From an uncultured archaeon (GTDB lineage Archaea > Iainarchaeota > Iainarchaeia > Iainarchaeales > 0-14-0-20-30-16), in the NCBI GenBank assembly GCA_964480435.1, contig CAYZSS010000009.1, positions 1 to 29,151 on the forward strand: 29,151 bases of DNA. Direction: 5' to 3'. The notes below the pieces were generated by a model, which saw nothing but the letters and a program-made list of their open reading frames with translations, ran no database searches and had not been told where the DNA came from. This document shows, in pieces, positions 1 to 28,117 of the stretch (position 1 is the stretch's first letter; each line of letters begins with the position of its first letter). The position numbers were made by a program, and so were the translations under genes.

Positions 1-1467
1 AATGGAACTCCTTCAACATCAAAAGCTTATTTTGTTCTTAATAATGGAGAAGCTAATAGGGGGCAGTTCTTAAAGATAAAAACAAAAAAAGGCTATTTTT
101 TGTGTTTTGTTAATGATATTTTTAGAAGCAATCCTTATTTTGAGAACGCAATGCAGGTAAATGAGAATACTTCTGATGCATTTCCTGTGGAAGACTGGCA
201 TAATACTATTGTTGAGTTAAAAGTTCTTGGTTTTTTAAAAAATGAAAAAATTTGTAGAGTTTCATTTCCACCCTATCCTGGGGAGAATGTAACCTTACCC
301 ACAAAAAATGAACTGGAATTATTCCTTGGTTTAGTGGAAAATGGGTTAGAATTAGGGGGTATAGAGAACACGGATGCTATAGTAAAAGTGGATACTTCAA
401 AATTATTGCAAAAACATTTGGCAATTTTGGCAATGTCGGGTGCAGGGAAATCTTACTTGGTTTCTGTGCTTCTGGAAGAAATTCTTGATAATTCAAAACT
501 AGGAATTGTTTTATTTGATGTGCACGGGGAATATAGGCATTTTGCAAAACCAGCATCTAAAGAATACACAGACTATTCATCTAAAACAAAAGTAATTGAT
601 TGTTCTAAGTTTAGGCTTTCTATTGACTCAGTAAATATTATTAGTAAATTAATTCCTGATTTAAGTGATGTACAAAAAAGGGCATTGCTAAAAATAATTT
701 CTGATTTGAAAAGTGAAGTTAAAGATAATGGGCTTTTTACTATTGAAAATATCATTGAAAGAGTTGATGAAGAAGACTCTTTGAAAAGAGCAACAGCAGC
801 AAGAGATTCTCTAATTGCAAAATTGAGACATATAGACTCTATGGGACTTTTTGGAAAGACCAATACATTAGATAATGATTTAGTTGTTCCTGGTAAATTG
901 ACTATTCTTGACCTATCTAATGTTTTGGATATGCAAAGAAAACAGATAATTGTATCATATATTTCAGAATTTTTGTTTAATTCTAGACTTAAAGGAACAG
1001 TTTCACCTTTTCTTATTGTTTTGGAAGAGGCGCACCAATTTATTCCTGAAAAAGCCGCATCGGATTATGCAATCGCTCGGAGTATATTTGAAACAATTGC
1101 AAGAGAGGGGCGAAAGTTTGGGTCAGCTTTGTGTTTAGTTTCACAGAGACCAATAAATTTGTCAACTACTGTTCTAAGTCAATGTAACACACACATATTT
1201 CTTAGAATTATAAATCCAAATGATTTAAAGCATATATCTGAATCTTCTGAAGGTTTAGATTATAAAAATATGGAGTTTATCACCGGCTTAAAAGTTGGAG
1301 AAGCATTAATGGTTGGTTCAGCAGTAAAATATCCATTATTTTTTAAAGTAAGAGAAAAGAAAAGCCAACCACAGGAATATGATCTAACTTTGGAAGATAT
1401 GGCAACTTCTTTTGTTAAAAATAAAGATAAAAAAGATAAAGATTTAGATTTATATCTAGGATTATAA
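1..1467 (+). CDS. herA: HerA-like hexameric ATPase (DUF87 / FtsK-HerA superfamily), 5'-partial
   Basis: Frame 1 is open from nt 1 (NGTPSTSKAYFVLNNGEANRGQFLKIKTKKGYF precedes the track's TTG at 100), so the gene runs off the left edge. It has Walker A AMSGAGKS, Walker B LIVLEEAH and the AREGRKFG..LVSQRP..LSQCNTHIFLRI block typical of HerA. Confidence 0.85.
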   Translation, partial: NGTPSTSKAYFVLNNGEANRGQFLKIKTKKGYFLCFVNDIFRSNPYFENAMQVNENTSDAFPVEDWHNTIVELKVLGFLKNEKICRVSFPPYPGENVTLPTKNELELFLGLVENGLELGGIENTDAIVKVDTSKLLQKHLAILAMSGAGKSYLVSVLLEEILDNSKLGIVLFDVHGEYRHFAKPASKEYTDYSSKTKVIDCSKFRLSIDSVNIISKLIPDLSDVQKRALLKIISDLKSEVKDNGLFTIENIIERVDEEDSLKRATAARDSLIAKLRHIDSMGLFGKTNTLDNDLVVPGKLTILDLSNVLDMQRKQIIVSYISEFLFNSRLKGTVSPFLIVLEEAHQFIPEKAASDYAIARSIFETIAREGRKFGSALCLVSQRPINLSTTVLSQCNTHIFLRIINPNDLKHISESSEGLDYKNMEFITGLKVGEALMVGSAVKYPLFFKVREKKSQPQEYDLTLEDMATSFVKNKDKKDKDLDLYLGL

Positions 1468-1479
1468 TGTGATTTTATT

Positions 1480-1902
1480 ATGGCTAAGAGAATTAATTCT
1501 AAGAAAAAAGGGAATAGATTTGAGTTAGAAGTGTCAAAAGTTCTTACTGAAATAACCAAAGCCAAATGGTTTAGGGTGGGAGTTAGTTCTGGTGCTCGAT
1601 ATACAAAGCAGGGTATTGAATCATTTCAAGGGGATATATTAACTGAGGATAAAGAGTATTTGAATATTATAATTGAATGTAAAGCAACAAAAGATAGAAT
1701 TAGCTTAGAAGATTTAGTAAATAAAAAATCTAAATTTTGGGAATGGATTGCGCAGGTAGAAGGAGAATCAGGAAAGAAAGACTGGGTTTTAATTTTCAAA
1801 GCAAATAATGGGAAGATGTTTTTTGTAAGCAAGGGTGAAAATAAAATAACAAGTAAACTAAAATTATTAACAAAGATAGAAACCTATTTAATCTTTTGCT
1901 AG
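1480..1902 (+). CDS. hjc: Hjc-like PD-(D/E)xK endonuclease (Holliday-junction-resolvase fold)
   Basis: 140 aa, starting 12 nt after the herA stop. The motif order is KGNRFELEV (Glu), GDIL (Asp), then IIECKATK (E-x-K), which matches the archaeal Hjc catalytic arrangement. Confidence 0.55.
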   Translation: MAKRINSKKKGNRFELEVSKVLTEITKAKWFRVGVSSGARYTKQGIESFQGDILTEDKEYLNIIIECKATKDRISLEDLVNKKSKFWEWIAQVEGESGKKDWVLIFKANNGKMFFVSKGENKITSKLKLLTKIETYLIFC

Positions 1903-3001: not shown

Positions 3002-3331
3002 TTATTTTTTGAACATGTCACAAAGTTTATTTTGTATTTCTATAATTTTTTCTTTTTTTAATGATCCTACTTTGTAGTTTATTCTTGATTCATTTATACT
3101 AAATAAAACAGATAACTTTGCAAAACTAATATTTTTTAAATCTCCACTTTTAAAATCATTTTGATTAAGTGAAACTGAATTTGGATCTGGGGTTATTTTG
3201 CTTGTTATTTGGCAAAGAATAATGTTTTTGTATGTATTTGCTAAAACTAGTGCAGGTCTTTTTTTTGAATCAGATGAATCTAGAAACGGGAAATTAAAAA
3301 CAACAATATCCCCTTTTATAACTCTTTCCAT
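3002..3331 (-). CDS. mazF: MazF/PemK-family endoribonuclease toxin
   Basis: The N-terminus is GDIVVFNFPF..SKKRPALVLAN, followed by ILCQITSK. This is the classic PemK/MazF signature. The ATG at 3329-3331 overlaps the upstream gene by 16 nt. Confidence 0.8.
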   Translation of the reverse strand: MERVIKGDIVVFNFPFLDSSDSKKRPALVLANTYKNIILCQITSKITPDPNSVSLNQNDFKSGDLKNISFAKLSVLFSINESRINYKVGSLKKEKIIEIQNKLCDMFKK

Positions 3332-5290: not shown

Positions 5291-5797
5291 TCACTTCATT
5301 TCTTTGAAAATAATCTCTTGTACTTCTTCTGGGTTTTTTAATGCAATAAGGTACCCTTCTGCGCCTTTAACATTTTTTCTGGACATCTGGCCTGCTAAGG
5401 TTTGAATGTATATTGAGCCAACTTTAAAAATACTTTCCAAAAAAGATCTTGATACTGCTAAATCAGAAATTTTACTGTATGGTATTGAAGTGATTGAATA
5501 ACCAAGAACTCCTTTTTTTATTGCAATTCTTTTATTTGTAATCCAGTAATACTCTTTTGAATACATTAAGTATATTATTAAAAAAATAATTAATAAAATC
5601 AATACCGCTGTGGCAATGAAAAGAGCAACTAAATAATTATATGCTATTGTTGAATCTTTTGCAGAAATATTAAAAGCGATAAATAATGTAATTAATAAAA
5701 GCCCAAATATTGCGGGTACTAATTGTATGCCTATCATTGCTTTTTTTGGTTTTATTTCTTTTATTATTTTTTCATCTTTTTGTAAAATAAATTCCAT
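5291..5797 (-). CDS. Membrane protein with a bacterial-type PH domain (bPH_2 / YdbS-YdbT-like)
   Basis: Two TM helices are followed by YWITNKRIAIKKGVLG..IPYSKISDLAVSRSFLESIFKVGSIYIQT. I chose the internal ATG at 5795-5797 (MEFILQKDEK) because the track's longer start overlaps cls. Confidence 0.65.
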   Translation of the reverse strand: MEFILQKDEKIIKEIKPKKAMIGIQLVPAIFGLLLITLFIAFNISAKDSTIAYNYLVALFIATAVLILLIIFLIIYLMYSKEYYWITNKRIAIKKGVLGYSITSIPYSKISDLAVSRSFLESIFKVGSIYIQTLAGQMSRKNVKGAEGYLIALKNPEEVQEIIFKEMK

Positions 5798-5817
5798 AAC
5801 ATCACATCCAGTATTTT

Positions 5818-7248
5818 TTATAAAAAAGGATAAAACAATCTGCATAAAGATTCTTTTACTTTCATCCATAGTGGTCTTTTTTTGAATTCCTTTAAAATAA
5901 TCTCTTTACTGTTTTTAAAGTCTTTGTTAAATAAATCTAACAATTCGTTTTCTTTTTTCTTGTTACCAAAAATAAAAGCGTTTAATTCAAAATCTTGGAA
6001 AAATCCTCTTGGTTCTATATTGCAACTTCCAATGGAAATAATATCTTTTGTTAATATTACTTTTCCATGTGCAAATCCATTGTAATAGTAAAGTTTAATT
6101 CCTGCTCTAAGGAGTCTGGTAAAATTAGTTCTTGCTGCTGACCAAACAAAAGGAGTATCCCCTGTTTTTGGAAGAATAACTCTCACATCAATTCCTTTCA
6201 TTGCAGCTGTTGTTAGTGCTGTAATAATTGCTTTATCTGGAGTAAAATATGGCACCATGATATACAAATAATCCTTTGCAGCAGTAATAATATTGAAATA
6301 TGCAAAATAAATATTTGGGGTATTATAATCTGGTCCTGATGCAACAATATTTACTAGTTCATCTCCGCCGTGACTTATCTTTGGAAAATAATCTTTTCCT
6401 GATATTAATTGTTTTGTAAGGAAAAACCACATTGAAAGAAAAGCAGTTTGCATTGTGTATATTGCGCTACCTTCAATTTTAATATGGACGTCGTGCCATT
6501 CTCCTAAGTTTGCATTTCCGTGGATATATTCATCACCAATGTTTAACCCGCCTGTGAACCCCACCTTGCCATCAATAATAATGATTTTTCTATGTGTTCT
6601 ATAATTTATTTTGCTTTTTAATATTGAAATATGCCACGGAAATAGAGCTTTAATTTCAATCCCCGCATTTTTCAAATCTTTTTTGTCTTTTCCTGCTATT
6701 TGGGTTATTATTCCATCATAGATTACTTTTACTTCTACTCCTTCTTTTGCTTTTTCAATTAATATTTCTTTTATTTCTTTTCCTATTTCTGATTCAAATT
6801 TTAAAATGTGCATTTCTATGTGGATGTGGTGTTTAGCTTTTTTTAGTTCTTTAATTATCTCAGAAAATCCATTTTTTCCATCAATTAATATTTTTGTTTT
6901 GTTGTTTGTGGAATAAGGAAACCCTCCTTTTAATGCTGTATTTAGTACTCCTGCTATTCTATCATTTTTTTTATAATATGGGGATTTTAATACTTCTGCC
7001 AGTTTTTTTAGTAATGTTTCTCTTTTTCTTCTGTAATTTTTTTTGAACATTTTTAGCCTAAACTTTGCAATATTAAAACGTTTTCCTACATAGAAATAGA
7101 TAATTAATCCAAGTAAAGGTAAGAAAATAATGATTAAAAGCCAAAGTATGGTTGATGCTGGGTCCCGGTTTTCTAAAAGAATAACAAGAATAATGATTGG
7201 AGTGTAAATAATAAAATATAATAAAACGAAGAGGCTATAAAAATCCAT
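5818..7248 (-). CDS. cls: Cardiolipin synthase (PLD superfamily, two HKD motifs)
   Basis: There are N-terminal TM helices. The first HKD motif is HRKIIIIDGKVGFTGGLNIGDEY and the second is HGKVILTKDIISIGSCNIEPRGF. Confidence 0.85.
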   Translation of the reverse strand: MDFYSLFVLLYFIIYTPIIILVILLENRDPASTILWLLIIIFLPLLGLIIYFYVGKRFNIAKFRLKMFKKNYRRKRETLLKKLAEVLKSPYYKKNDRIAGVLNTALKGGFPYSTNNKTKILIDGKNGFSEIIKELKKAKHHIHIEMHILKFESEIGKEIKEILIEKAKEGVEVKVIYDGIITQIAGKDKKDLKNAGIEIKALFPWHISILKSKINYRTHRKIIIIDGKVGFTGGLNIGDEYIHGNANLGEWHDVHIKIEGSAIYTMQTAFLSMWFFLTKQLISGKDYFPKISHGGDELVNIVASGPDYNTPNIYFAYFNIITAAKDYLYIMVPYFTPDKAIITALTTAAMKGIDVRVILPKTGDTPFVWSAARTNFTRLLRAGIKLYYYNGFAHGKVILTKDIISIGSCNIEPRGFFQDFELNAFIFGNKKKENELLDLFNKDFKNSKEIILKEFKKRPLWMKVKESLCRLFYPFL

Positions 7249-14724: not shown

Positions 14725-15168
14725 TTAGTTCATTTTTTTCTTTATTATAAACCCTAATTCGGTGAATATTATTATTCCCAATATTAATGCAATTATTGAA
14801 CTGGAATTATAATATGCTATATTTGCAATTATGCTACTTAGTAAAGATCCGTAAAATATTCCATTAACAAATAAATCCATCTCTAGAAAAATTACACCAA
14901 GTAAAATGACAATTGTAGCAACACTGATTAAAATAAGTTTATTCTTTTCTGTTGCTTCTTTTGTTTCATTGAATAGTATATAACAGTTATCCATTTCTGC
15001 TTGATTTGGGGAATACCCATTTATGTCATAAACCGGTTTAACTGTGTTATAGCAATCATCCATTCCTACTTTGCAGAAAATGTTTGCAGCATAAAATATA
15101 AGAGAAGTAAACAAAATAGTGATTAATATAATAAATATTAGCTCTTTTGGTTTGTTCATCTTTACCAT
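14725..15168 (-). CDS. Small membrane protein, unknown function
   Basis: An N-terminal TM helix and two or three C-terminal TM helices flank a short Cys-containing loop. Confidence 0.5.
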   Translation of the reverse strand: MVKMNKPKELIFIILITILFTSLIFYAANIFCKVGMDDCYNTVKPVYDINGYSPNQAEMDNCYILFNETKEATEKNKLILISVATIVILLGVIFLEMDLFVNGIFYGSLLSSIIANIAYYNSSSIIALILGIIIFTELGFIIKKKMN

Positions 15169-15228
15169 TTATTATCACCAACATATAGATTGTTTTACTT
15201 GTTTAAATTACTTTGTTTATTATTGTTG

Positions 15229-15373
15229 TTTTTCATAAATTAAATAGAGATTTAATCTTTTCTTTTGTTTGTTTTAATTTGCATTTTTTTTAAATTAGAA
15301 AAAGGGGAAAAGCATATATATTATTTGTTTGTAGAGTATATGTCTTTTATGGTAAGGAGGGGTATTATGAAAA
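15229..15373 (+). promoter_or_regulatory. Duplicated promoter/5'UTR cassette, copy 1
   Basis: Nt 15229-15362 are identical base-for-base to 17635-17768 (134 nt). A 1-nt G indel follows, then 11 more identical nt that include the ATG. The cassette contains A/T-rich TATA-like boxes (ttttttttaaatta, catatatatta) and an AAGGAGG Shine-Dalgarno sequence. Confidence 0.8.
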
Positions 15374-17100
15374 TTAAATTATCAATATTATTTTTATTGC
15401 TAGTTTTTACTGTTGTATTTTCTGGTTGTGTAAATTCTGGTATTGAAAGTGTTGCAATGGGTTTACCCGAAGTTCAAGCTTTTTTAGCTGAACACCCTGG
15501 GGCAGAGTTTAGAACGGCTCTTTGGGAACAAGATGTTGTAGAAGAACATCTGGATTTAATTATAGCAGAGTGCGGAATACAAATGAAAGCTGTATCTTAT
15601 TGGGTAGTAGACTTTTTTGAAGATAAGGTACATGTATCGATATATATAAGACAAAGCGACAATCAAGTAATGTGTATGTTAACTAAAGGGTCTAATTTAA
15701 TAACTGCAGGAGATCCACAAAATATTGTTGTTACTTCTGAAAATAATGAACCAAAAACAAATAATGAGATTCTTTATTGTGGTGTAGAAAATTCTTGTGA
15801 GAATGGATTAGAGTGTTGGAATATTGATAGTAAGAACCAATGTGTTAAAGCTAGTCCTGACTTATGGTATTGTGAAGGTAAGGGTGAAGCAGTTGTTTCA
15901 GGGATATATCCACATACTCTAACTTGTGGGAAAAATGACGAAGTGCCTCAAGATACAATGTCAGAGGTTAGTTCTGATATAAAAATTAATGTAATTCAAT
16001 TAACAAATTATGATCAAATAGTTCATAGAACTCCTGAACAGGCAAGTATTTCAGCAGATGGAGGTAAATTTGCATTTTTTAAATTTGTAAAATATCAAGA
16101 TGGTGCTGAAGAAAACATAAGGAATGCAGTTTTTGTAGGAAATACATCAAGTTTAAATGACTCAAAGATGGTATTTGAAAGTGGAACCATAGTTTCAAGA
16201 ACTACTCCTGCTTATACTTATTATTACTTTGCAAATACAGGTGGTTCTACTGCGCTTTCTGAGGATGGAAAATATGTTTATTTTATGTCTGCGGATTCAA
16301 TCAGAGGTGCTTATGGAACAGACTCACCAATACATCTTGCAAGAGTAAATACTGGTACTTCTGAGTTTAATGCGATTGATTTTCCTGTGTTACCAGGGTA
16401 TGAAGAAACAAGACTGGCTAATTTCCAAATTAGTGGCAATAAAATATATTATGTTGCTCAATTGGTTAAAGAAGATCAAGACTCAAGAACATGGACTGAT
16501 ACTGGAATATTTAGTATGAATCTTGATGGTTCTAATAAAGAACTACTTGCAAAAACAATTGGTGGTGAATATCCTCACATATATTCAAGTAATATGAGTT
16601 ATGATTCATTAACAGACAAACTTTATTTTGAAGGACAAACAAATCCAAATATTGATGGTATTTATTATCTTGAGAACAATGGATTTAAAAAAGTTGATTT
16701 GTCTGAAGAATTAGGGGATAATGGATTAGTAGGAGTATATAATAATGAGATCATATTATCACGAAGTGGACCTGATTTTTCTTATAATGTTTTATCAAAA
16801 GAAGTAACAGAATTTGATTTTGATCTGTATCCAAGATATTTTATGACAAATAATGGAAATGTTGTTTATGGTAAAGTTAGTTTTAGCATTTACAATCCAT
16901 TATCAGAAGAAACAACTGTTATTATAGGAAATACAAAAGAACAAAATTCTGACTATAGGGACCTTAAATTTAGATTAGTAAATCAGATAATTCCATACAA
17001 CGGAGAAACAGCTAATAGTGATGGAAAAACAATTTTAGTACAAGAAGAAAAAACTGGTTTTGGAAATTACTATTTGATTAAAGTAAATGGTCAGAATTAA
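15367..17100 (+). CDS. Lipoprotein with Cys-rich module and TolB-like beta-propeller repeats
   Basis: The start at ATG 15367 follows AAGGAGG. The signal peptide and lipobox are LLLVFTVVFSGC. The Cys-rich segment is YCGVENSCENGLECWNIDSKNQC. Repeated SADGGKFAF / SEDGKYVYF / ISGNKIYY / MNLDGSNKELL motifs are typical of propeller blades. Confidence 0.7.
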   Translation: MKIKLSILFLLLVFTVVFSGCVNSGIESVAMGLPEVQAFLAEHPGAEFRTALWEQDVVEEHLDLIIAECGIQMKAVSYWVVDFFEDKVHVSIYIRQSDNQVMCMLTKGSNLITAGDPQNIVVTSENNEPKTNNEILYCGVENSCENGLECWNIDSKNQCVKASPDLWYCEGKGEAVVSGIYPHTLTCGKNDEVPQDTMSEVSSDIKINVIQLTNYDQIVHRTPEQASISADGGKFAFFKFVKYQDGAEENIRNAVFVGNTSSLNDSKMVFESGTIVSRTTPAYTYYYFANTGGSTALSEDGKYVYFMSADSIRGAYGTDSPIHLARVNTGTSEFNAIDFPVLPGYEETRLANFQISGNKIYYVAQLVKEDQDSRTWTDTGIFSMNLDGSNKELLAKTIGGEYPHIYSSNMSYDSLTDKLYFEGQTNPNIDGIYYLENNGFKKVDLSEELGDNGLVGVYNNEIILSRSGPDFSYNVLSKEVTEFDFDLYPRYFMTNNGNVVYGKVSFSIYNPLSEETTVIIGNTKEQNSDYRDLKFRLVNQIIPYNGETANSDGKTILVQEEKTGFGNYYLIKVNGQN

Positions 17101-17206
17101 TAGTATAAAATGAAAGTAAATTTACTTTAAAACAAAGTAAATTTATTTTATCTTTTTTTTTAAATTAAATAGAAAGTTATTTATCTTTTTTTCTATTTGT
17201 TATACT

Positions 17207-17590
17207 ATGCTTGATGAAATCTGTTCTTTATGTAATATATCTGAAAAAGATGTGGTTGACTGGCGAGAAGGTAAACTTTATCTTGATGATTCTGAATATA
17301 GTAAAACCTATAAAGGAAATATTATTTTGACTAAAGATCATTTAATTTTTGTATCAAAGAAAGGTATATTTACTTCAGCTAAAAAAAGGTATGATGTGGA
17401 ATTATCAAAAATTTCAAAAGTATCAAAAATATTTTTAACAAAAAGTTATTGTGTTTATGCTAATACTGCAGATAAAGGTGCAGGTTTTTTTAAAAGATTA
17501 TTTAAATATAAAAATATAAGGGTTAGTATGAAAGATGGGAAAGATTTTTTTCTTAATCTTAAAAAATTAAATCCAGAAGTTGAAGTGTGA
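17207..17590 (+). CDS. Small cytoplasmic protein, possible PH/GRAM-like fold
   Basis: 127 aa. GNIILTKDHLIFVSKKG resembles the bPH/GRAM core strand pattern. The assignment is weak. Confidence 0.4.
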   Translation: MLDEICSLCNISEKDVVDWREGKLYLDDSEYSKTYKGNIILTKDHLIFVSKKGIFTSAKKRYDVELSKISKVSKIFLTKSYCVYANTADKGAGFFKRLFKYKNIRVSMKDGKDFFLNLKKLNPEVEV

Positions 17591-17634
17591 TATTTTTTAA
17601 TATTTTAAATTAAATAAATAGACTATTATTTGTT

Positions 17635-17780
17635 TTTTTCATAAATTAAATAGAGATTTAATCTTTTCTTTTGTTTGTTTTAATTTGCATTTTTTTTAAA
17701 TTAGAAAAAGGGGAAAAGCATATATATTATTTGTTTGTAGAGTATATGTCTTTTATGGTAAGGAGGGGGTATTATGAAAA
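17635..17780 (+). promoter_or_regulatory. Duplicated promoter/5'UTR cassette, copy 2
   Basis: See copy 1. This copy precedes an unrelated lipoprotein gene. Confidence 0.8.
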
Positions 17781-18289
17781 CTATTTTGCCTATTGTAATT
17801 GCAATGCTTGCGGTTATGGTTGTTTTAAGTGGCTGTGTTGGAAGTCAGGTGGCCCCGGGCACAAAAATTGATTCTAAAGATTCTTTTATGAGTGCATTAA
17901 ACTCAGGTATAGAGTTAAAATGTGCTGTTGATATTAACGGGATGGCTGCAACAGTTTATTTTACAAAAGATAAATATATGGCAATAGCAAATACTCCGCA
18001 ACAAGAAAAAGTTTATACTATTATTGATCTTACAGAAAAAATGATATATATTTGGTCAGATATAGATGTATTTACTCCTGAACAATTAGATGCAATGCAG
18101 ATTACTGCTGAACCAGGAAAAAAGATTGGTGCAAAAATGTCTGTAGCAGAACAGCCTTCTGAAGAGCTAACTGCTGATGATTATGAACCAGATTGGATTT
18201 GTGAAACAAGTGTAGAACCAATAGTAGTCCCAAGTGGCTATCAATTTATTGATATGACTGGTATGATGTCTGCACAAGGAACTAACTAA
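17774..18289 (+). CDS. Small lipoprotein, paralog A1
   Basis: The signal peptide and lipobox are MLAVMVVLSGC. By manual alignment, 152 of 171 residues are identical to the ORF at 25958-26473. Confidence 0.75.
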   Translation: MKTILPIVIAMLAVMVVLSGCVGSQVAPGTKIDSKDSFMSALNSGIELKCAVDINGMAATVYFTKDKYMAIANTPQQEKVYTIIDLTEKMIYIWSDIDVFTPEQLDAMQITAEPGKKIGAKMSVAEQPSEELTADDYEPDWICETSVEPIVVPSGYQFIDMTGMMSAQGTN

Positions 18290-19858: not shown

Positions 19859-20236
19859 TTATAATTCAAAAAGTAGTTTTAACCTGTCTTTTGTTTGATC
19901 TAATTTATTTTTTGAAATTGTTCCGATTTTTTGTTTAATTATATTTTTGTTGGCGGTTATCAAAAATCCGCAATTAATTGTGCTTTCTTTGATTAAATCG
20001 CCGATTATTAAATCTTTTTTTGTTAGTTTTATGTCATATGGCAAGGAATGTCCAATAGAAGTAATTTTTAATAATATTAAATCAGGGTATTTATTGTTGA
20101 ATTGACTATTACTTATTACTAGTGCTGGCCTTAGTTTGGTGTTGGTTTGATCTGAAAAAGGAACTGGCAGAACAATTATATCCCCTTGATTAAAAATTGA
20201 ATAGTTCTTTTGCATCATCCCAGTTCTCCCCGGCAT
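19859..20236 (-). CDS. mazF: MazF/PemK-family endoribonuclease toxin (second copy)
   Basis: The signature is GDIIVLPVPFSDQTNTKLRPALVISN followed by ILLKITS. The start may instead be Met7 or Met8 (20218 or 20215). It overlaps the antitoxin gene's 3' end. Confidence 0.8.
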   Translation of the reverse strand: MPGRTGMMQKNYSIFNQGDIIVLPVPFSDQTNTKLRPALVISNSQFNNKYPDLILLKITSIGHSLPYDIKLTKKDLIIGDLIKESTINCGFLITANKNIIKQKIGTISKNKLDQTKDRLKLLFEL

Positions 20237-20387
20237 AGTTTATTGCTTCAGTTTTAATTTTATTGTCTTCTAATTCTCTTAATTTAATAATTGCTGCGTT
20301 TCTCATAACTTCTGTCCATTTTATTTCGCTGTGTTTTTTCATAAGGCTATAATATTGGTCTGGTATCGATAAAGTTACATTAGTCAT
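20190..20387 (-). CDS. RHH/CopG-like antitoxin with Trp/acidic C-terminal tail
   Basis: I chose the ATG at 20385-20387, which follows GGTGA. The N-terminus is MTNVTLSIPDQYYSLMKKHSEIKWTEVMRNAAIIKL (beta-strand plus helix RHH pattern). The C-terminus is AGENWDDAKELFNF. The track's longer ORF overlaps the TrmB-family regulator gene's 3' end and looks spurious. Confidence 0.6.
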   Translation of the reverse strand: MTNVTLSIPDQYYSLMKKHSEIKWTEVMRNAAIIKLRELEDNKIKTEAINYAGENWDDAKELFNF

Positions 20388-20463
20388 ATAATCACCAAAT
20401 AATCTACTTAAATAAGTATAATAAGGGTTAACTATAAAAATATAGTGTTTTTGTTGCTTGTTT

Positions 20464-21168
20464 TTATTTGAGGTTTTCCCAAAGAAGCTCAAAAGTGTCC
20501 TTAAATCCAGCATAAATATCAGGGTCTTTTATTTTTACCACAAGTATGTTTCCTTTGAGTTTTTGTATTACTACTTTATTATCAAATATAAACATTGTGG
20601 CATAATTTGTGTTTTTTGAAGGCAAATACTTTATTGAAACATTTTTTTTGTTATGAAACTCAGGCATATTCATGTTCTTATTTGCAATTATTTTTATGCT
20701 GTTTACTTTTAATATTTCTTTTAGCCAACCTTGGCTATATTTTAATGGCTCTCTTATTAGCCCTGTCACATTTAACATTCTAATTTCTTTGGATTTTATT
20801 AGTTCTCTATTTATGTTTTTTAACCCTTGAACCCCGTCATAAATTTCAACCATACTATCTGGTATTTTGTGTTCTGTTTTTGTTGCTTTTATTTTTGTAA
20901 TAATTTCTTGTGCAATAATTTCTTTTTGTTTTATATTAGACAGAAAATTTTCAGGGTCAGTTATGGAATATAATCTTTTTCCATTTTCTGTTATGCAATT
21001 AATTACTCCTTTGTTAATTAAGGCTTGTAAGGTATTGTATGTTGCTGTTCTGTTACCTGTGATCTTTTTTGTTACTTCTGAAGCACTTATCTTTTGTGTA
21101 GAAAAAATGGTATTGTAAATTTTTGCTTCTCTTTTGGTAAAGCCTAAATCTTGTAATTGTTCTAACAT
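20464..21168 (-). CDS. TrmB-family transcriptional regulator
   Basis: The N-terminal wHTH LQDLGFTKREAKIYNTIFSTQKISASEVTKKITGNRTATYNTLQALINKGVI is characteristic of TrmB. Confidence 0.75.
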   Translation of the reverse strand: MLEQLQDLGFTKREAKIYNTIFSTQKISASEVTKKITGNRTATYNTLQALINKGVINCITENGKRLYSITDPENFLSNIKQKEIIAQEIITKIKATKTEHKIPDSMVEIYDGVQGLKNINRELIKSKEIRMLNVTGLIREPLKYSQGWLKEILKVNSIKIIANKNMNMPEFHNKKNVSIKYLPSKNTNYATMFIFDNKVVIQKLKGNILVVKIKDPDIYAGFKDTFELLWENLK

Positions 21169-25957: not shown

Positions 25958-26473
25958 ATGAAAGCTATTTTGCCGATTGTAATTGCAATGCTTGCAGTTA
26001 TGGTTGTTTTAAGTGGTTGTGTTGGTAGCCAGGTGGCACCAGGCACAAAAATAGATTCTAAAGATTCTTTTATTGCAGCAGTTAATTCTGGTGTGGAATT
26101 AAAATGCCTGGTTGATATTAATGGAATGGCGGCAACAGTTTATTTTACTAAAGATAAATACCTTGCGGTAGCAAGCACAACACAAGCAGAAAAGGTTTAT
26201 ACTATTATTGATCTTACTGAAAAAATGATATATATTTGGTCAGATATAGATGTATTTACTCCTGAACAATTGGTGGCAATGCAGATTACTGCTGAACCAG
26301 GTAAGAAAATAGGTGCCAAAATGTCTGTAGCAGAACAGCCTTCTGAAGAAATAACTGCTGACGATTATAAACCAGAATGGATTTGTGAAACTAGTGTAGA
26401 GCCAATTGTGGCACCAAGCGGTTATCAGTTTATTGATATGACTGATTTGATGTCTGGACAAGGAACTAACTAA
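25958..26473 (+). CDS. Small lipoprotein, paralog A2
   Basis: It has the same signal peptide and lipobox as A1, and 19 of 171 residues differ. Its upstream region is unrelated to the A1 cassette. Confidence 0.75.
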   Translation: MKAILPIVIAMLAVMVVLSGCVGSQVAPGTKIDSKDSFIAAVNSGVELKCLVDINGMAATVYFTKDKYLAVASTTQAEKVYTIIDLTEKMIYIWSDIDVFTPEQLVAMQITAEPGKKIGAKMSVAEQPSEEITADDYKPEWICETSVEPIVAPSGYQFIDMTDLMSGQGTN

Positions 26474-26619: not shown

Positions 26620-27444
26620 ATGGCTATAAAAGTTATTACAATTAATTCAGAAACTGCTGATTTTAAATTTGCTGAATCTTTAAAAAATAATCGGCAAAAA
26701 AGATCAAAAAGTCAACTTTTTTTTGTAGAAGGCGTTAACTCAATTAATTTATTAATTGAAAATAATTGGAGTATTGATACTCTTATTTATTCAACAGAAA
26801 AAAAACAATCTGACTGGGCAAAAAATATAATTAAAAAAACAGGTGCAAAAACTCATTTGGATATGAAATATAACTTGCTTAAAAAATTAAGTGATAAAGA
26901 GGAAACTTCTGAGATTATTGCTTTAGTAAGTATGCCTAAAGATGATTTGCCAAAAATTAAAATTAAGAAAAATCCTCTTATTGTAATCCTTGATAGACCT
27001 GCAAGTCCTGGAAATTTAGGCACAATAATTAGGTCTTGCAATAGTTTTTTAGTAGATGGCATAATTATCACTGGCCATGCAACGGATTTGTATGATCCAA
27101 AAACAATACTTGCTAGTGTGGGATCTATTTTTTCAATTCCAATTGTTAGGCTAGAATCACATAATAAAATAAAAATTTGGTTGGACAAATTAAAAATAAC
27201 ATTTTCTGACTTACAAATAATTGGAACTTCTGCAAAAGCAAAGAACTTTATAAATAATTATGATTTAACAAAGCCTACTGTTCTGCTTGTAGGTAATGAG
27301 ACTAATGGGCTAAGTTTTAATTACAAAAATATGTGTGATTCTTTATTAAAAATACCTTTGTTTGGATCTGCATCATCTTTAAATGTGGGTTGTGCAACAG
27401 CTATATTTTTGTATGAAATTAATAATCAAAGAAAAAAAAAGTAA
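26620..27444 (+). CDS. SpoU/TrmH-family RNA 2'-O-methyltransferase
   Basis: SPOUT motifs are LDRPASPGNLGTIIRSC, LLVGNETNGLS and IPLFGSASSLNVGCATAIFLYE. There is an N-terminal substrate-binding-like domain. Confidence 0.8.
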   Translation: MAIKVITINSETADFKFAESLKNNRQKRSKSQLFFVEGVNSINLLIENNWSIDTLIYSTEKKQSDWAKNIIKKTGAKTHLDMKYNLLKKLSDKEETSEIIALVSMPKDDLPKIKIKKNPLIVILDRPASPGNLGTIIRSCNSFLVDGIIITGHATDLYDPKTILASVGSIFSIPIVRLESHNKIKIWLDKLKITFSDLQIIGTSAKAKNFINNYDLTKPTVLLVGNETNGLSFNYKNMCDSLLKIPLFGSASSLNVGCATAIFLYEINNQRKKK

Positions 27445-27485
27445 AAGAATCCCGCCTCCCGGACTTGAACCGGGGATCTTTCGGT

Positions 27486-27743
27486 TACTGCCCTTTTTCT
27501 TTCGCGAAAGAAAAAGTGTAAGCTGCCCAAAAAGAAAGGCGCTTCGCGTAATTATAACCTTTTTGCTTTTACGTTCTAAGTTCATCAATTGTAAACAAAG
27601 TGCCTTTATGGCACAATTTTTCTTTTGGTGAACCAAGAAGCTTTTTGCTTTAAAGGCAAAAAGTTTCAGGGCCTTAAGAACTTTTCTTTTGAAAAGTTTC
27701 TTATTGCTTATGCTTTTCTTTTTTTTAAAAAGAAAAGAATCGT
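27486..27743 (-). other. tRNA-Tyr intron (258 nt, hairpin-rich)
   Basis: Loop nt C32-U35 can pair with intron GCAG (plus strand 27488-27491). That leaves 3-nt bulges AG|A and UA|A, giving a BHB central helix. There is a perfect 24-nt palindrome at 27493-27516 and several other A/U-rich hairpins. Confidence 0.7.
27517..27558 (-). repeat. tRNA-associated conserved motif, copy 2 (inside the tRNA-Tyr intron)
   Basis: On the plus strand, tgtaagctgcccaaaaagaaaggcgcttcgc is followed by a ttataac box. It matches 13432-13475. Confidence 0.6.
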
Positions 27744-27886
27744 CTACAGCCGAACGCATTAGCCACTATGCTAAGGCGGGATACCTTATTTTTTGTTTTA
27801 CGCTTTTTCAAAATAGAAAAAGTGTTACTCGATTATTATTCTAATTGTTGTAAATCTTTATAAATCGTTCCCTGCTAAAGTCTAAT

Positions 27887-28117
27887 TAGTAGTAGGTGGC
27901 CAGCTCCCGTAAGGAGGAAGGTCCGCCCATCCATTATGTGAGAAGAATCCAGAAATGGGTAGCAAAACTAACAGAAATAAACCACCGTAAGCTTACTGTG
28001 ATAGAAAATTGAGGTGCTTGTGGTCAGGATGAAAAATAGTTCTGCTTCACGGATGCAAGCATATGCGCTCAGATTAATGCTGGCTGAAAACAGAAGGCGG
28101 CCTATAGCCTACTGCTA
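27887..28117 (+). ncRNA. rnpB: RNase P RNA (archaeal, size-reduced, about 231 nt)
   Basis: The CR-I-like sequence is GGAGGAAGGTCCGCCC and the CR-V-like sequence is AACAGAAGGCGGCCTAT. A 10-bp P1 helix forms between 27887-27896 and 28108-28117 (one G-U). P2 is GGCC/GGCC and a short P3 hairpin is CTCC-cgtaa-GGAG. A TATA-like tttataaa lies at 27857-27864 and a T-run follows at 28121. Confidence 0.8.

Follow-up and report, generated by a model that had tools for sequence, protein, structure and literature searches.

Within a 29,151-nt stretch of DNA from an uncultured archaeon (GenBank assembly GCA_964480435.1, contig CAYZSS010000009.1, positions 1 to 29,151; hereafter the window), an intergenic segment, here named R, occurs twice in front of two unrelated lipoprotein genes. 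The first copy precedes a gene pair (X) encoding a 577-aa propeller lipoprotein and a 127-aa PH-like protein, and the second precedes the gene of a 171-aa lipoprotein; A denotes the side of the upstream flank gene and B the small-lipoprotein side. We lean towards the view that R reflects a real and recent duplication of a module comprising a promoter, a 5′ untranslated region and a start codon, which has placed two adjacent lipoprotein transcription units under identical signals. The coordinates of the features are collected in Table 1.

A base-by-base comparison of positions 15229-15362 with 17635-17768 gave identity at 134 of 134 positions, as a preliminary description of the locus had reported. 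After this core, copy 1 has GGGG and copy 2 GGGGG, which is the single G indel of that description, and then come 11 nt in common, TATTATGAAAA. Beyond ATGAAAA, inside codon 3 of each downstream gene, the two sequences are no longer similar, and the reported stop of identity right after the start codon is also correct. To the left of the core the next 11 nt match at 8 positions, giving a fuzzy extension. The repeat finder returned R as a family of 145 nt at 98% (D2); apart from R, the small-lipoprotein gene pair (D1) is the sole long repeat of the window. A 30-mer from R, searched with up to three mismatches, occurs exactly twice in the window against 0.00 expected occurrences, and therefore a chance origin of the pair is excluded. 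Both copies are on the plus strand with a spacing of 2,406 bp, matching the direct repeats about 2.4 kb apart described before, and their recombination would delete the propeller and PH-like genes. They lie in the intergenic gaps 15169-15366 and 17591-17773 without overlapping the neighbouring genes. The very recent duplication or homogenisation proposed earlier is supported by 0 differences in 134 nt, compared with a nucleotide divergence of 13% between the two small-lipoprotein paralogs of the same window, the G+C content of which is 30%.

Further copies of R, for which the preliminary description had proposed a search, did not appear. No third or inverted copy is present in the 29-kb window. 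Scans of JGI metagenome contigs with a 22-mer, and of GTDB genomes and IMG/VR with a 24-mer, yielded no copy in collections where the source genome is absent from the GTDB set and IMG/VR and its contigs are unmatched in the JGI set. The single 22-mer match in the JGI contigs was rejected as chance, as it lies inside a ribosomal protein L21e-like gene on an unrelated contig. R is likewise absent from the related loci L010-L014 and L019, which are discussed below.

Table 1 Features of the repeat R and its neighbouring genes. Box positions are relative to the ATG.
Feature	Position	Strand	Remarks
147-aa membrane protein gene, flank A	14725..15168	-	divergent; start 61 nt outside R
R copy 1	15229..15373	+	core 15229-15362, GGGG run, TATTATGAAAA; fuzzy left extension to 15218; contains promoter-like boxes, Shine-Dalgarno sequence and start codon of the propeller lipoprotein
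Terminal inverted repeat, TTTTCATAA / TTATGAAAA	15230-15238 / 15365-15373; copy 2 17636-17644 / 17772-17780	.	9 nt, 100% complementary (pair I5)
Distal TATA/BRE-like box AAATTAAATA	15237..15256; copy 2 17643-17662	+	box at -130..-121; overlaps palindrome ATTAAAT-AGAG-ATTTAAT
Proximal TATA-like box GCATATATATTA	15312..15323; copy 2 17718-17729	+	-55..-44; putative function
Shine-Dalgarno sequence AAGGAGGGG	15354..15362; copy 2 17760-17769	+	-13..-5; one extra G in copy 2
577-aa propeller lipoprotein gene	15367..17100	+	lipobox FSGC; C-terminal beta-propeller
127-aa cytoplasmic PH/GRAM-like protein gene	17207..17590	+	sub-threshold PH-superfamily matches
R copy 2	17635..17780	+	core 17635-17768, GGGGG, TATTATGAAAA; fuzzy left extension to 17624; precedes the small lipoprotein gene
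171-aa lipoprotein gene	17774..18289	+	lipobox LSGC; near-orphan family
Small-lipoprotein paralog gene	25958..26473	+	without R

Exact-protein look-ups led to independent assemblies of the same population, and the repeat is present in at least four of these. Both copies are present in contig L001 (ENA ERZ27248937), which has a single mismatch to the window in 10.2 kb (99.99% identity); L008 (ERZ27248920) carries copy 2 and both of its flanks at 100%, and L016 (ERZ27248895) spans copy 1. The copy-specific length of the G run agrees with the window in all three. Other contigs end inside R: L015 and L017 stop exactly 100 nt into it, L002 begins 100 nt before its end, and the Logan contig L018 (SRR8437217, k=31) stops 30 nt into it (L015 and L002 are from ENA ERZ27248961, whereas L017 and the circular contig L003 described below are from JGI 3300028298). 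Breaks at such k-mer-like distances are the behaviour of a true genomic repeat in short-read assemblers. While several contigs breaking inside R might call an assembly artefact to mind, which the preliminary description had named as fatal to its proposal, independent assemblies reproduce both copies with distinct flanks and copy-specific G-run lengths (both copies in L001, copy 2 in L008 and copy 1 in L016). Therefore, as far as contigs can show, the duplication is genuine, and the chance of an artefact is negligible.

Two details of these contigs are recorded here as observations. L016 (k141_76940) follows the window through flank A, R and 10 codons of the propeller gene and then, near window position ~15396, continues into 34 nt that are absent from the window (MKIKLSILFFPCFGIFNFLFS...); this divergent tail may represent a variant allele, an insertion carried by some strains or the chimeric end of a contig. 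In JGI 3300028298, the contig end 100 nt into R (L017) does not match the 127-nt overlap of the circular contig (L003).

The two genes that follow R are not paralogous. Their products are 577 and 171 aa long, as stated earlier, and the ATG of the first gene is at 15367 and not at 15368. Both proteins possess a signal peptide and a lipobox (FSGC and LSGC, respectively), and BLASTP detected only a signal-peptide-like similarity between them (aa 1-27 of the propeller protein versus aa 1-47 of the small lipoprotein, E=0.009). The SGC lipobox is conserved in the homolog family of the propeller protein, members of which are lacking in the viruses of IMG/VR. The C-terminal two thirds of this protein were modelled as a beta-propeller with a predicted local distance difference test (pLDDT) score of 67, and the top PDB hits of Foldseek are all beta-propellers, which supports the propeller label of the preliminary description. 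The PH-like label of the 127-aa protein fared less well, as it draws on sub-threshold Pfam matches only (GLUE, GRAM, bPH and VPS13_C, all of the PH superfamily). The 127-aa protein has no signal peptide; the indexed homolog search returned the query only, a profile search of the PDB was empty, and its single-sequence AlphaFold model (pLDDT 54) was too poor for a fold search. For the 171-aa lipoprotein, the indexed search returned itself and the paralog in the window only, and an exhaustive search of 1.8 billion representatives found 7 remote relatives. The one relative among these with DNA available (L019) has an unrelated upstream region, where only the stretch with the Shine-Dalgarno sequence and ATG is similar, and not significantly. 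A FAD-dependent protein is encoded downstream, on the B side; a look-up of this protein with the present start codon gave no record.

R contains what appear to be start signals for transcription and translation. In archaea, a TATA box is expected about 25 nt before the mapped transcription start, and a Shine-Dalgarno sequence 5-8 nt before the ATG. The TATA-like boxes and the strong AAGGAGG pointed out earlier are present at -130..-121, -55..-44 and -13..-5, with the GGAGG 6 nt before the ATG in copy 1 and 7 nt in copy 2, a difference that is constant across assemblies; with these features R resembles a promoter with a 5′ untranslated region, as proposed earlier. The 10-mer AAATTAAATA of the distal box, a combined TATA and B recognition element (BRE) candidate, has five sites in the window, where 1.7 would be expected. 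All but one, at 2946, are clustered within 15237-17652, namely at 15237, 17162 (upstream of the PH-like gene), 17607 and 17643. This motif may be a common promoter (BRE/TATA) or regulator site of the lipoprotein cluster. If the proximal box is used, a transcription start near -25 would be predicted, with the Shine-Dalgarno sequence inside the leader. In most other genes of the window, a TATA-like box precedes the ATG by 25-40 nt and a Shine-Dalgarno sequence is missing, while the small-lipoprotein paralog and a few other genes have a more distant box plus GGTG/GAGG; in the paralog, TTTATATC is located at a distance similar to that of the proximal box. Such distances fit the proximal box, followed by a leader about 25 nt long, as the one that may be in use. 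A scan for sigma-70 promoters and terminators gave no more sites than shuffled sequences, which is uninformative for an archaeon.

The paralog of the small lipoprotein gives a hint on which of the two upstream regions is the newcomer. The paralogous genes are 87% identical in nucleotides and 89% in amino acids, and their homology extends from about -10 before the ATG to about 42 nt past the stop codon. Further upstream, the paralog is no more similar to R than shuffled sequence (local alignment score 21 versus a shuffled mean of 21.8), which confirms that the gene at 25958 lacks the cassette. At coding position 7 the small lipoprotein gene has A and the paralog G. Since the loss of paralog homology near the ATG coincides with the end of the identity between R and the upstream region of the propeller gene (+7), it is suggested that one upstream region was overwritten. 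The simplest reading of the sequences is that R replaced the original upstream region of the small-lipoprotein gene up to ATGAAAA. An argument for the reverse, by which the retention of GTATATGnCTTTT in the paralog would mark R as native to the small lipoprotein, was rejected as evidence, the score of 21 being at the shuffled mean of 21.8.

All the above can be accommodated in the following scheme. R would be a discrete module of about 145 bp in the AT-rich chromosome of a DPANN archaeon, carrying two TATA-like boxes, the Shine-Dalgarno sequence AAGGAGG and ATGAAAA. One very recent and non-reciprocal copying event would have put this module before two adjacent transcription units, the conserved operon of the propeller lipoprotein and PH-like protein and the small lipoprotein gene. 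Gene conversion and template switching are candidates for this event, and so is a tandem duplication of R together with the operon and a subsequent deletion. For an overwritten upstream region of the small lipoprotein gene, either direct microhomology-mediated copying or a tandem duplication of R and X with a later deletion joining ATGAAA to ATGAAA would do; the left join falls in a T-run, the right one at the ATGAAAA common to both copies. With identical start signals for transcription and translation, both units should be co-expressed and co-regulated. As a by-product, the direct copies would leave the 2.3-kb operon prone to loss or amplification by homologous recombination.

In related loci the gene pair X is shared and R is not. 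A propeller homolog followed directly by a 52-53% identical PH-like homolog was found in three related loci (L010, L013 and L014, of which L010 and L013 are, with L011, of the same lineage and L014 is separate), and X is therefore a conserved two-gene module. The upstream comparison covers L010 and L012, as L014 ends at the contig end upstream of the propeller homolog. The propeller homologs of these two loci have an upstream block of about 70 nt in common (L010 5930-6000 and L012 3140-3208; CCGAAAGGTTTAAATATT...GTGGTAAATATG), which is unlike R, and their upstream neighbours differ. The promoter region thus is a different one in the relatives. As a side observation, in the lineages of L010 and L012 the promoter region likewise travels with the propeller gene.

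Several points speak against this scheme. The direction of copying may be the opposite one, and functional constraints force breakpoints near start codons. The paralog upstream region is not significantly similar to R. The relatives are only about 50% identical in amino acids and are too distant to reveal the ancestral promoter of the lineage. In addition, the ends of R are inverted repeats of 9 bp, which would not be expected from a one-off illegitimate recombination and hint at a defined, possibly mobile unit.

These termini deserve attention of their own. None of 28,408 other 145-nt windows has an inverted repeat of at least 9 nt within +/-2 nt of its ends, and 10 have one of 8 nt; the check was devised after the feature had been seen, so it carries moderate weight. 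The termini may be read in three ways: as those of a defined unit of the type of miniature inverted-repeat transposable elements (MITEs), as a sign of descent from an intergenic region between two divergent genes that both started with ATGAAAA, or as coincidence. Neisseria Correia elements and archaeal MITEs are short non-coding elements with terminal inverted repeats that may carry promoters directly upstream of genes. MITEs are present in tens to hundreds of copies and have target-site duplications and longer inverted repeats. R might be a small mobile or portable promoter element of the MITE or Correia type, a 145-bp unit with 9-bp inverted termini and outward promoter, ribosome-binding and start signals, which has more copies elsewhere in the genome and was recruited by surface-protein genes. 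We regard this as unlikely. The perfect termini exactly at the limits of the unit, a length no control window attains, together with the size and non-coding nature of R and the two identical copies before unrelated genes, would suit such an element, although 9 nt is short for a MITE. MITEs that bear promoters have been described, Correia elements among them (PMC3575422). On the other hand, only two adjacent copies were found, in the window and in three public DNA collections that lack the source genome, and the JGI metagenome contigs, GTDB genomes, IMG/VR and the related loci held no match. No target-site duplication is visible at either copy, the flanks ...TTGTTG|R|TTAAAT (copy 1) and ...TTTGTT|R|CTATTT (copy 2) having no common direct repeat. 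Both copies supply an in-frame start codon and replace native sequence rather than interrupt it, which transposition does not do. A Pfam scan of the 34 large open reading frames (ORFs) of the 29-kb window returned no transposase, recombinase, integrase or invertase domain, and the inverted ends could merely reflect an ATGAAAA-type start on each strand. The earlier picture of a portable cassette captured by surface-protein genes was not borne out: two copies are known, the 9-bp inverted termini favour a discrete unit, and the missing target-site duplication and a window free of transposase and recombinase genes speak against transposition. That R has instead been kept as a structured cis-regulatory RNA leader or a small RNA, and is not a recent copy at all, is highly improbable. 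In a read-through transcript, base pairing of the terminal inverted repeat could bring the 5′ end and the start codon together, as in the minimum free energy structure, and some published mobile promoters turned out to be riboswitches (PMC3575422). We rejected the structured-RNA reading because R has no Rfam match even at E<=1 and an unremarkable fold energy (z = -1.6, with 11 of 200 shuffles folding at least as well); furthermore, the left arm of the inverted repeat is upstream of both candidate TATA boxes, and homologous copies for a covariation test are lacking.

The direct copies of R may also matter as substrates of recombination, an idea that is compatible with a recent duplication of the start module and does not compete with it. 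Unequal crossing-over between direct repeats is a general source of deletions, circles and tandem arrays. At the present locus, RadA-mediated recombination would excise a 2,406-bp circle, leave an A-R-B deletion or produce a tandem amplification, and so cause copy-number or on/off variation of the propeller lipoprotein; we think it quite unlikely that this takes place. The case for it begins with L003, a JGI contig of 2,533 nt that starts inside the PH-like gene, crosses the end of X, R and the start of X, includes X in full and ends in an exact copy of its own first 127 nt. As 2,533 - 127 = 2,406, the repeat spacing, L003 is a circular permutation of R plus the operon. The assembler gave L003 as an isolated cycle instead of an R-bounded edge, the contig with the A flank from this sample (L017) is separate and only 972 nt long, and two further short contigs carry the same genes. 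This pattern is mildly suggestive of an excess copy number, and low coverage with tip clipping would explain it equally well. The form of L003 fits an excised circle or a tandem array and equally a k=127 graph loop over any 134-nt repeat, and proves nothing: with R exceeding k=127, a single-copy A-R-X-R-B locus is enough for a de Bruijn graph to close the loop. The breaks 100 nt into R (L015, L017), 100 nt before its end (L002) and 30 nt into it (Logan) are those of repeat collapse. Among the five contigs with the A gene, none is an A-R-B deletion contig joining this gene directly to the small lipoprotein gene, and the difference in the G run is constant across assemblies, so the copies are apparently not homogenised often. 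The surface-variation mechanism of the preliminary description thus found no backing, with no deletion contig among these five and an uninformative permuted contig. A bolder combination of both ideas, in which DPANN archaea transplant R as a defined module with inverted termini before surface-lipoprotein genes, the operon is an excisable or amplifiable 2.4-kb unit and the circular JGI contig is a real molecule or a tandem junction, must be regarded as a long shot. If true, it would amount to a recombinase-independent route to dosage or phase variation of surface proteins in an episymbiotic archaeon.

Compared with known systems, the duplicated start module R is closest to putative mobile promoters. 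These were surveyed in the complete genomes available in 2011 by Matus-Garcia, Nijveen & van Passel (NAR 2012), who found >4,000 families in 1,362 genomes, most of them pairs (PMC3575422). By definition, two non-paralogous genes of one genome have 80% or more identity across a stretch of 50 nt or more within -150..-50; some are 100% identical over 100 bp, and the mechanism is mostly unknown (PMC3575422). R spans -138..-5 at 100%, with 89 nt inside -150..-50, it is confined to intergenic gaps, and the two genes share a signal-peptide match only (E=0.009), with folds and families that differ. R therefore falls under the operational definition of a putative mobile promoter and, on its sequence, can be called a case of "promoter reuse". 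Like the published pairs, it is near-identical non-coding sequence upstream of non-paralogous genes. It differs from those surveyed in its host, an uncultivated DPANN archaeon, in an identity that runs through the Shine-Dalgarno sequence and the start codon, in the neighbouring position of the copies and in the 9-bp inverted termini.

A 5′ region common to surface-lipoprotein genes is also a feature of the vsp and vpma loci of Mycoplasma bovis and M. agalactiae, where a conserved 5′ non-coding region (70 bp in vsp) precedes lipoprotein genes subject to surface variation (PMC3365025). Those loci comprise many genes with conservation through a signal peptide of ~31 aa, have an adjacent Xer-type recombinase and switch by inversion (PMC3365025). 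In contrast, R precedes two genes, its identity ends at codon 3, its copies are direct and no recombinase is encoded in the 29 kb; a shared signal peptide, an adjacent recombinase and three or more genes with inversions are all missing from the window. Invertible promoters of the fim or Bacteroides type are no better match, as all contigs have R in one orientation and the scanned ORFs include no invertase. Unlike MITEs, R has two known copies, no target-site duplication and 9-bp termini, and it precisely replaces a native start region. With direct-repeat amplification units it shares direct repeats of at least 134 bp that bracket 2.3 kb and a permuted 2,406-bp contig, with the difference that this contig is explicable as an assembly-graph loop.

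The window allows some statements on its host. It contains an archaeal RNase P RNA at 27888-28116 (+), which covers model positions 1-288 in only 229 nt and is thus shortened, and a tRNA-Asn(GTT) at 27449-27781 (-) with a 258-nt intron in the anticodon loop. This tRNA was missed by ARAGORN with default settings and by Rfam; it surfaced because its 3′ half resembles tRNA-Ile over 30 nt (family D10), and ARAGORN -i confirmed it. Two mechanical ORFs overlapping it, 27379-27759 (-) and 27383-27631 (+), are probably spurious. Housekeeping genes of the window include those of the phenylalanyl-tRNA synthetase (PheRS) alpha subunit and aIF5A. The archaeal RNase P RNA and the intron-containing tRNA show that the host is an archaeon. 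The propeller protein has its closest relatives in metagenome-assembled genomes labelled Candidatus Aenigmatarchaeota and Nanohalarchaeota, and from these best homologs, which are not a phylogeny, we infer a DPANN-type archaeon, probably similar to Aenigmatarchaeota. Lipobox lipoproteins are reportedly prevalent in DPANN (PMC12462473).

Some other features of the window are listed for completeness. Two MazF/PemK-type toxin genes are among 3002-3331 (-), 19859-20236 (-), 20190-20513 (-) and 20464-21168 (-); the second, which is 1.6 kb downstream of the small lipoprotein locus, adjoins a small ORF resembling ribbon-helix-helix (RHH) proteins and a TrmB-family regulator. At 100-1902 (+), a HerA-type helicase gene (DUF87) precedes a gene annotated "phage putative PDDEXK endonuclease", and the two could be a repair or defence pair. 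The gene of a bPH_2 membrane protein at 5291-5869 (-) overlaps that of a phospholipase D (PLD)/cardiolipin-synthase-like protein at 5818-7248 (-). The bPH_2 protein is the second PH-type protein of the window and is unrelated to the PH-like protein of the operon.

In bacteria, promoter reuse is a documented, mechanistically obscure route to regulatory rewiring. R is a clean and very recent archaeal example, with exact breakpoints (the T-run and ATGAAAA) and 9-bp termini, and may serve as a small useful data point on how such copies originate. DPANN archaea attach to host cells, and the expression and variation of surface lipoproteins bear on this interaction. If the 2.4-kb unit were indeed to circularise or amplify, it would provide a simple copy-number switch for a surface protein.

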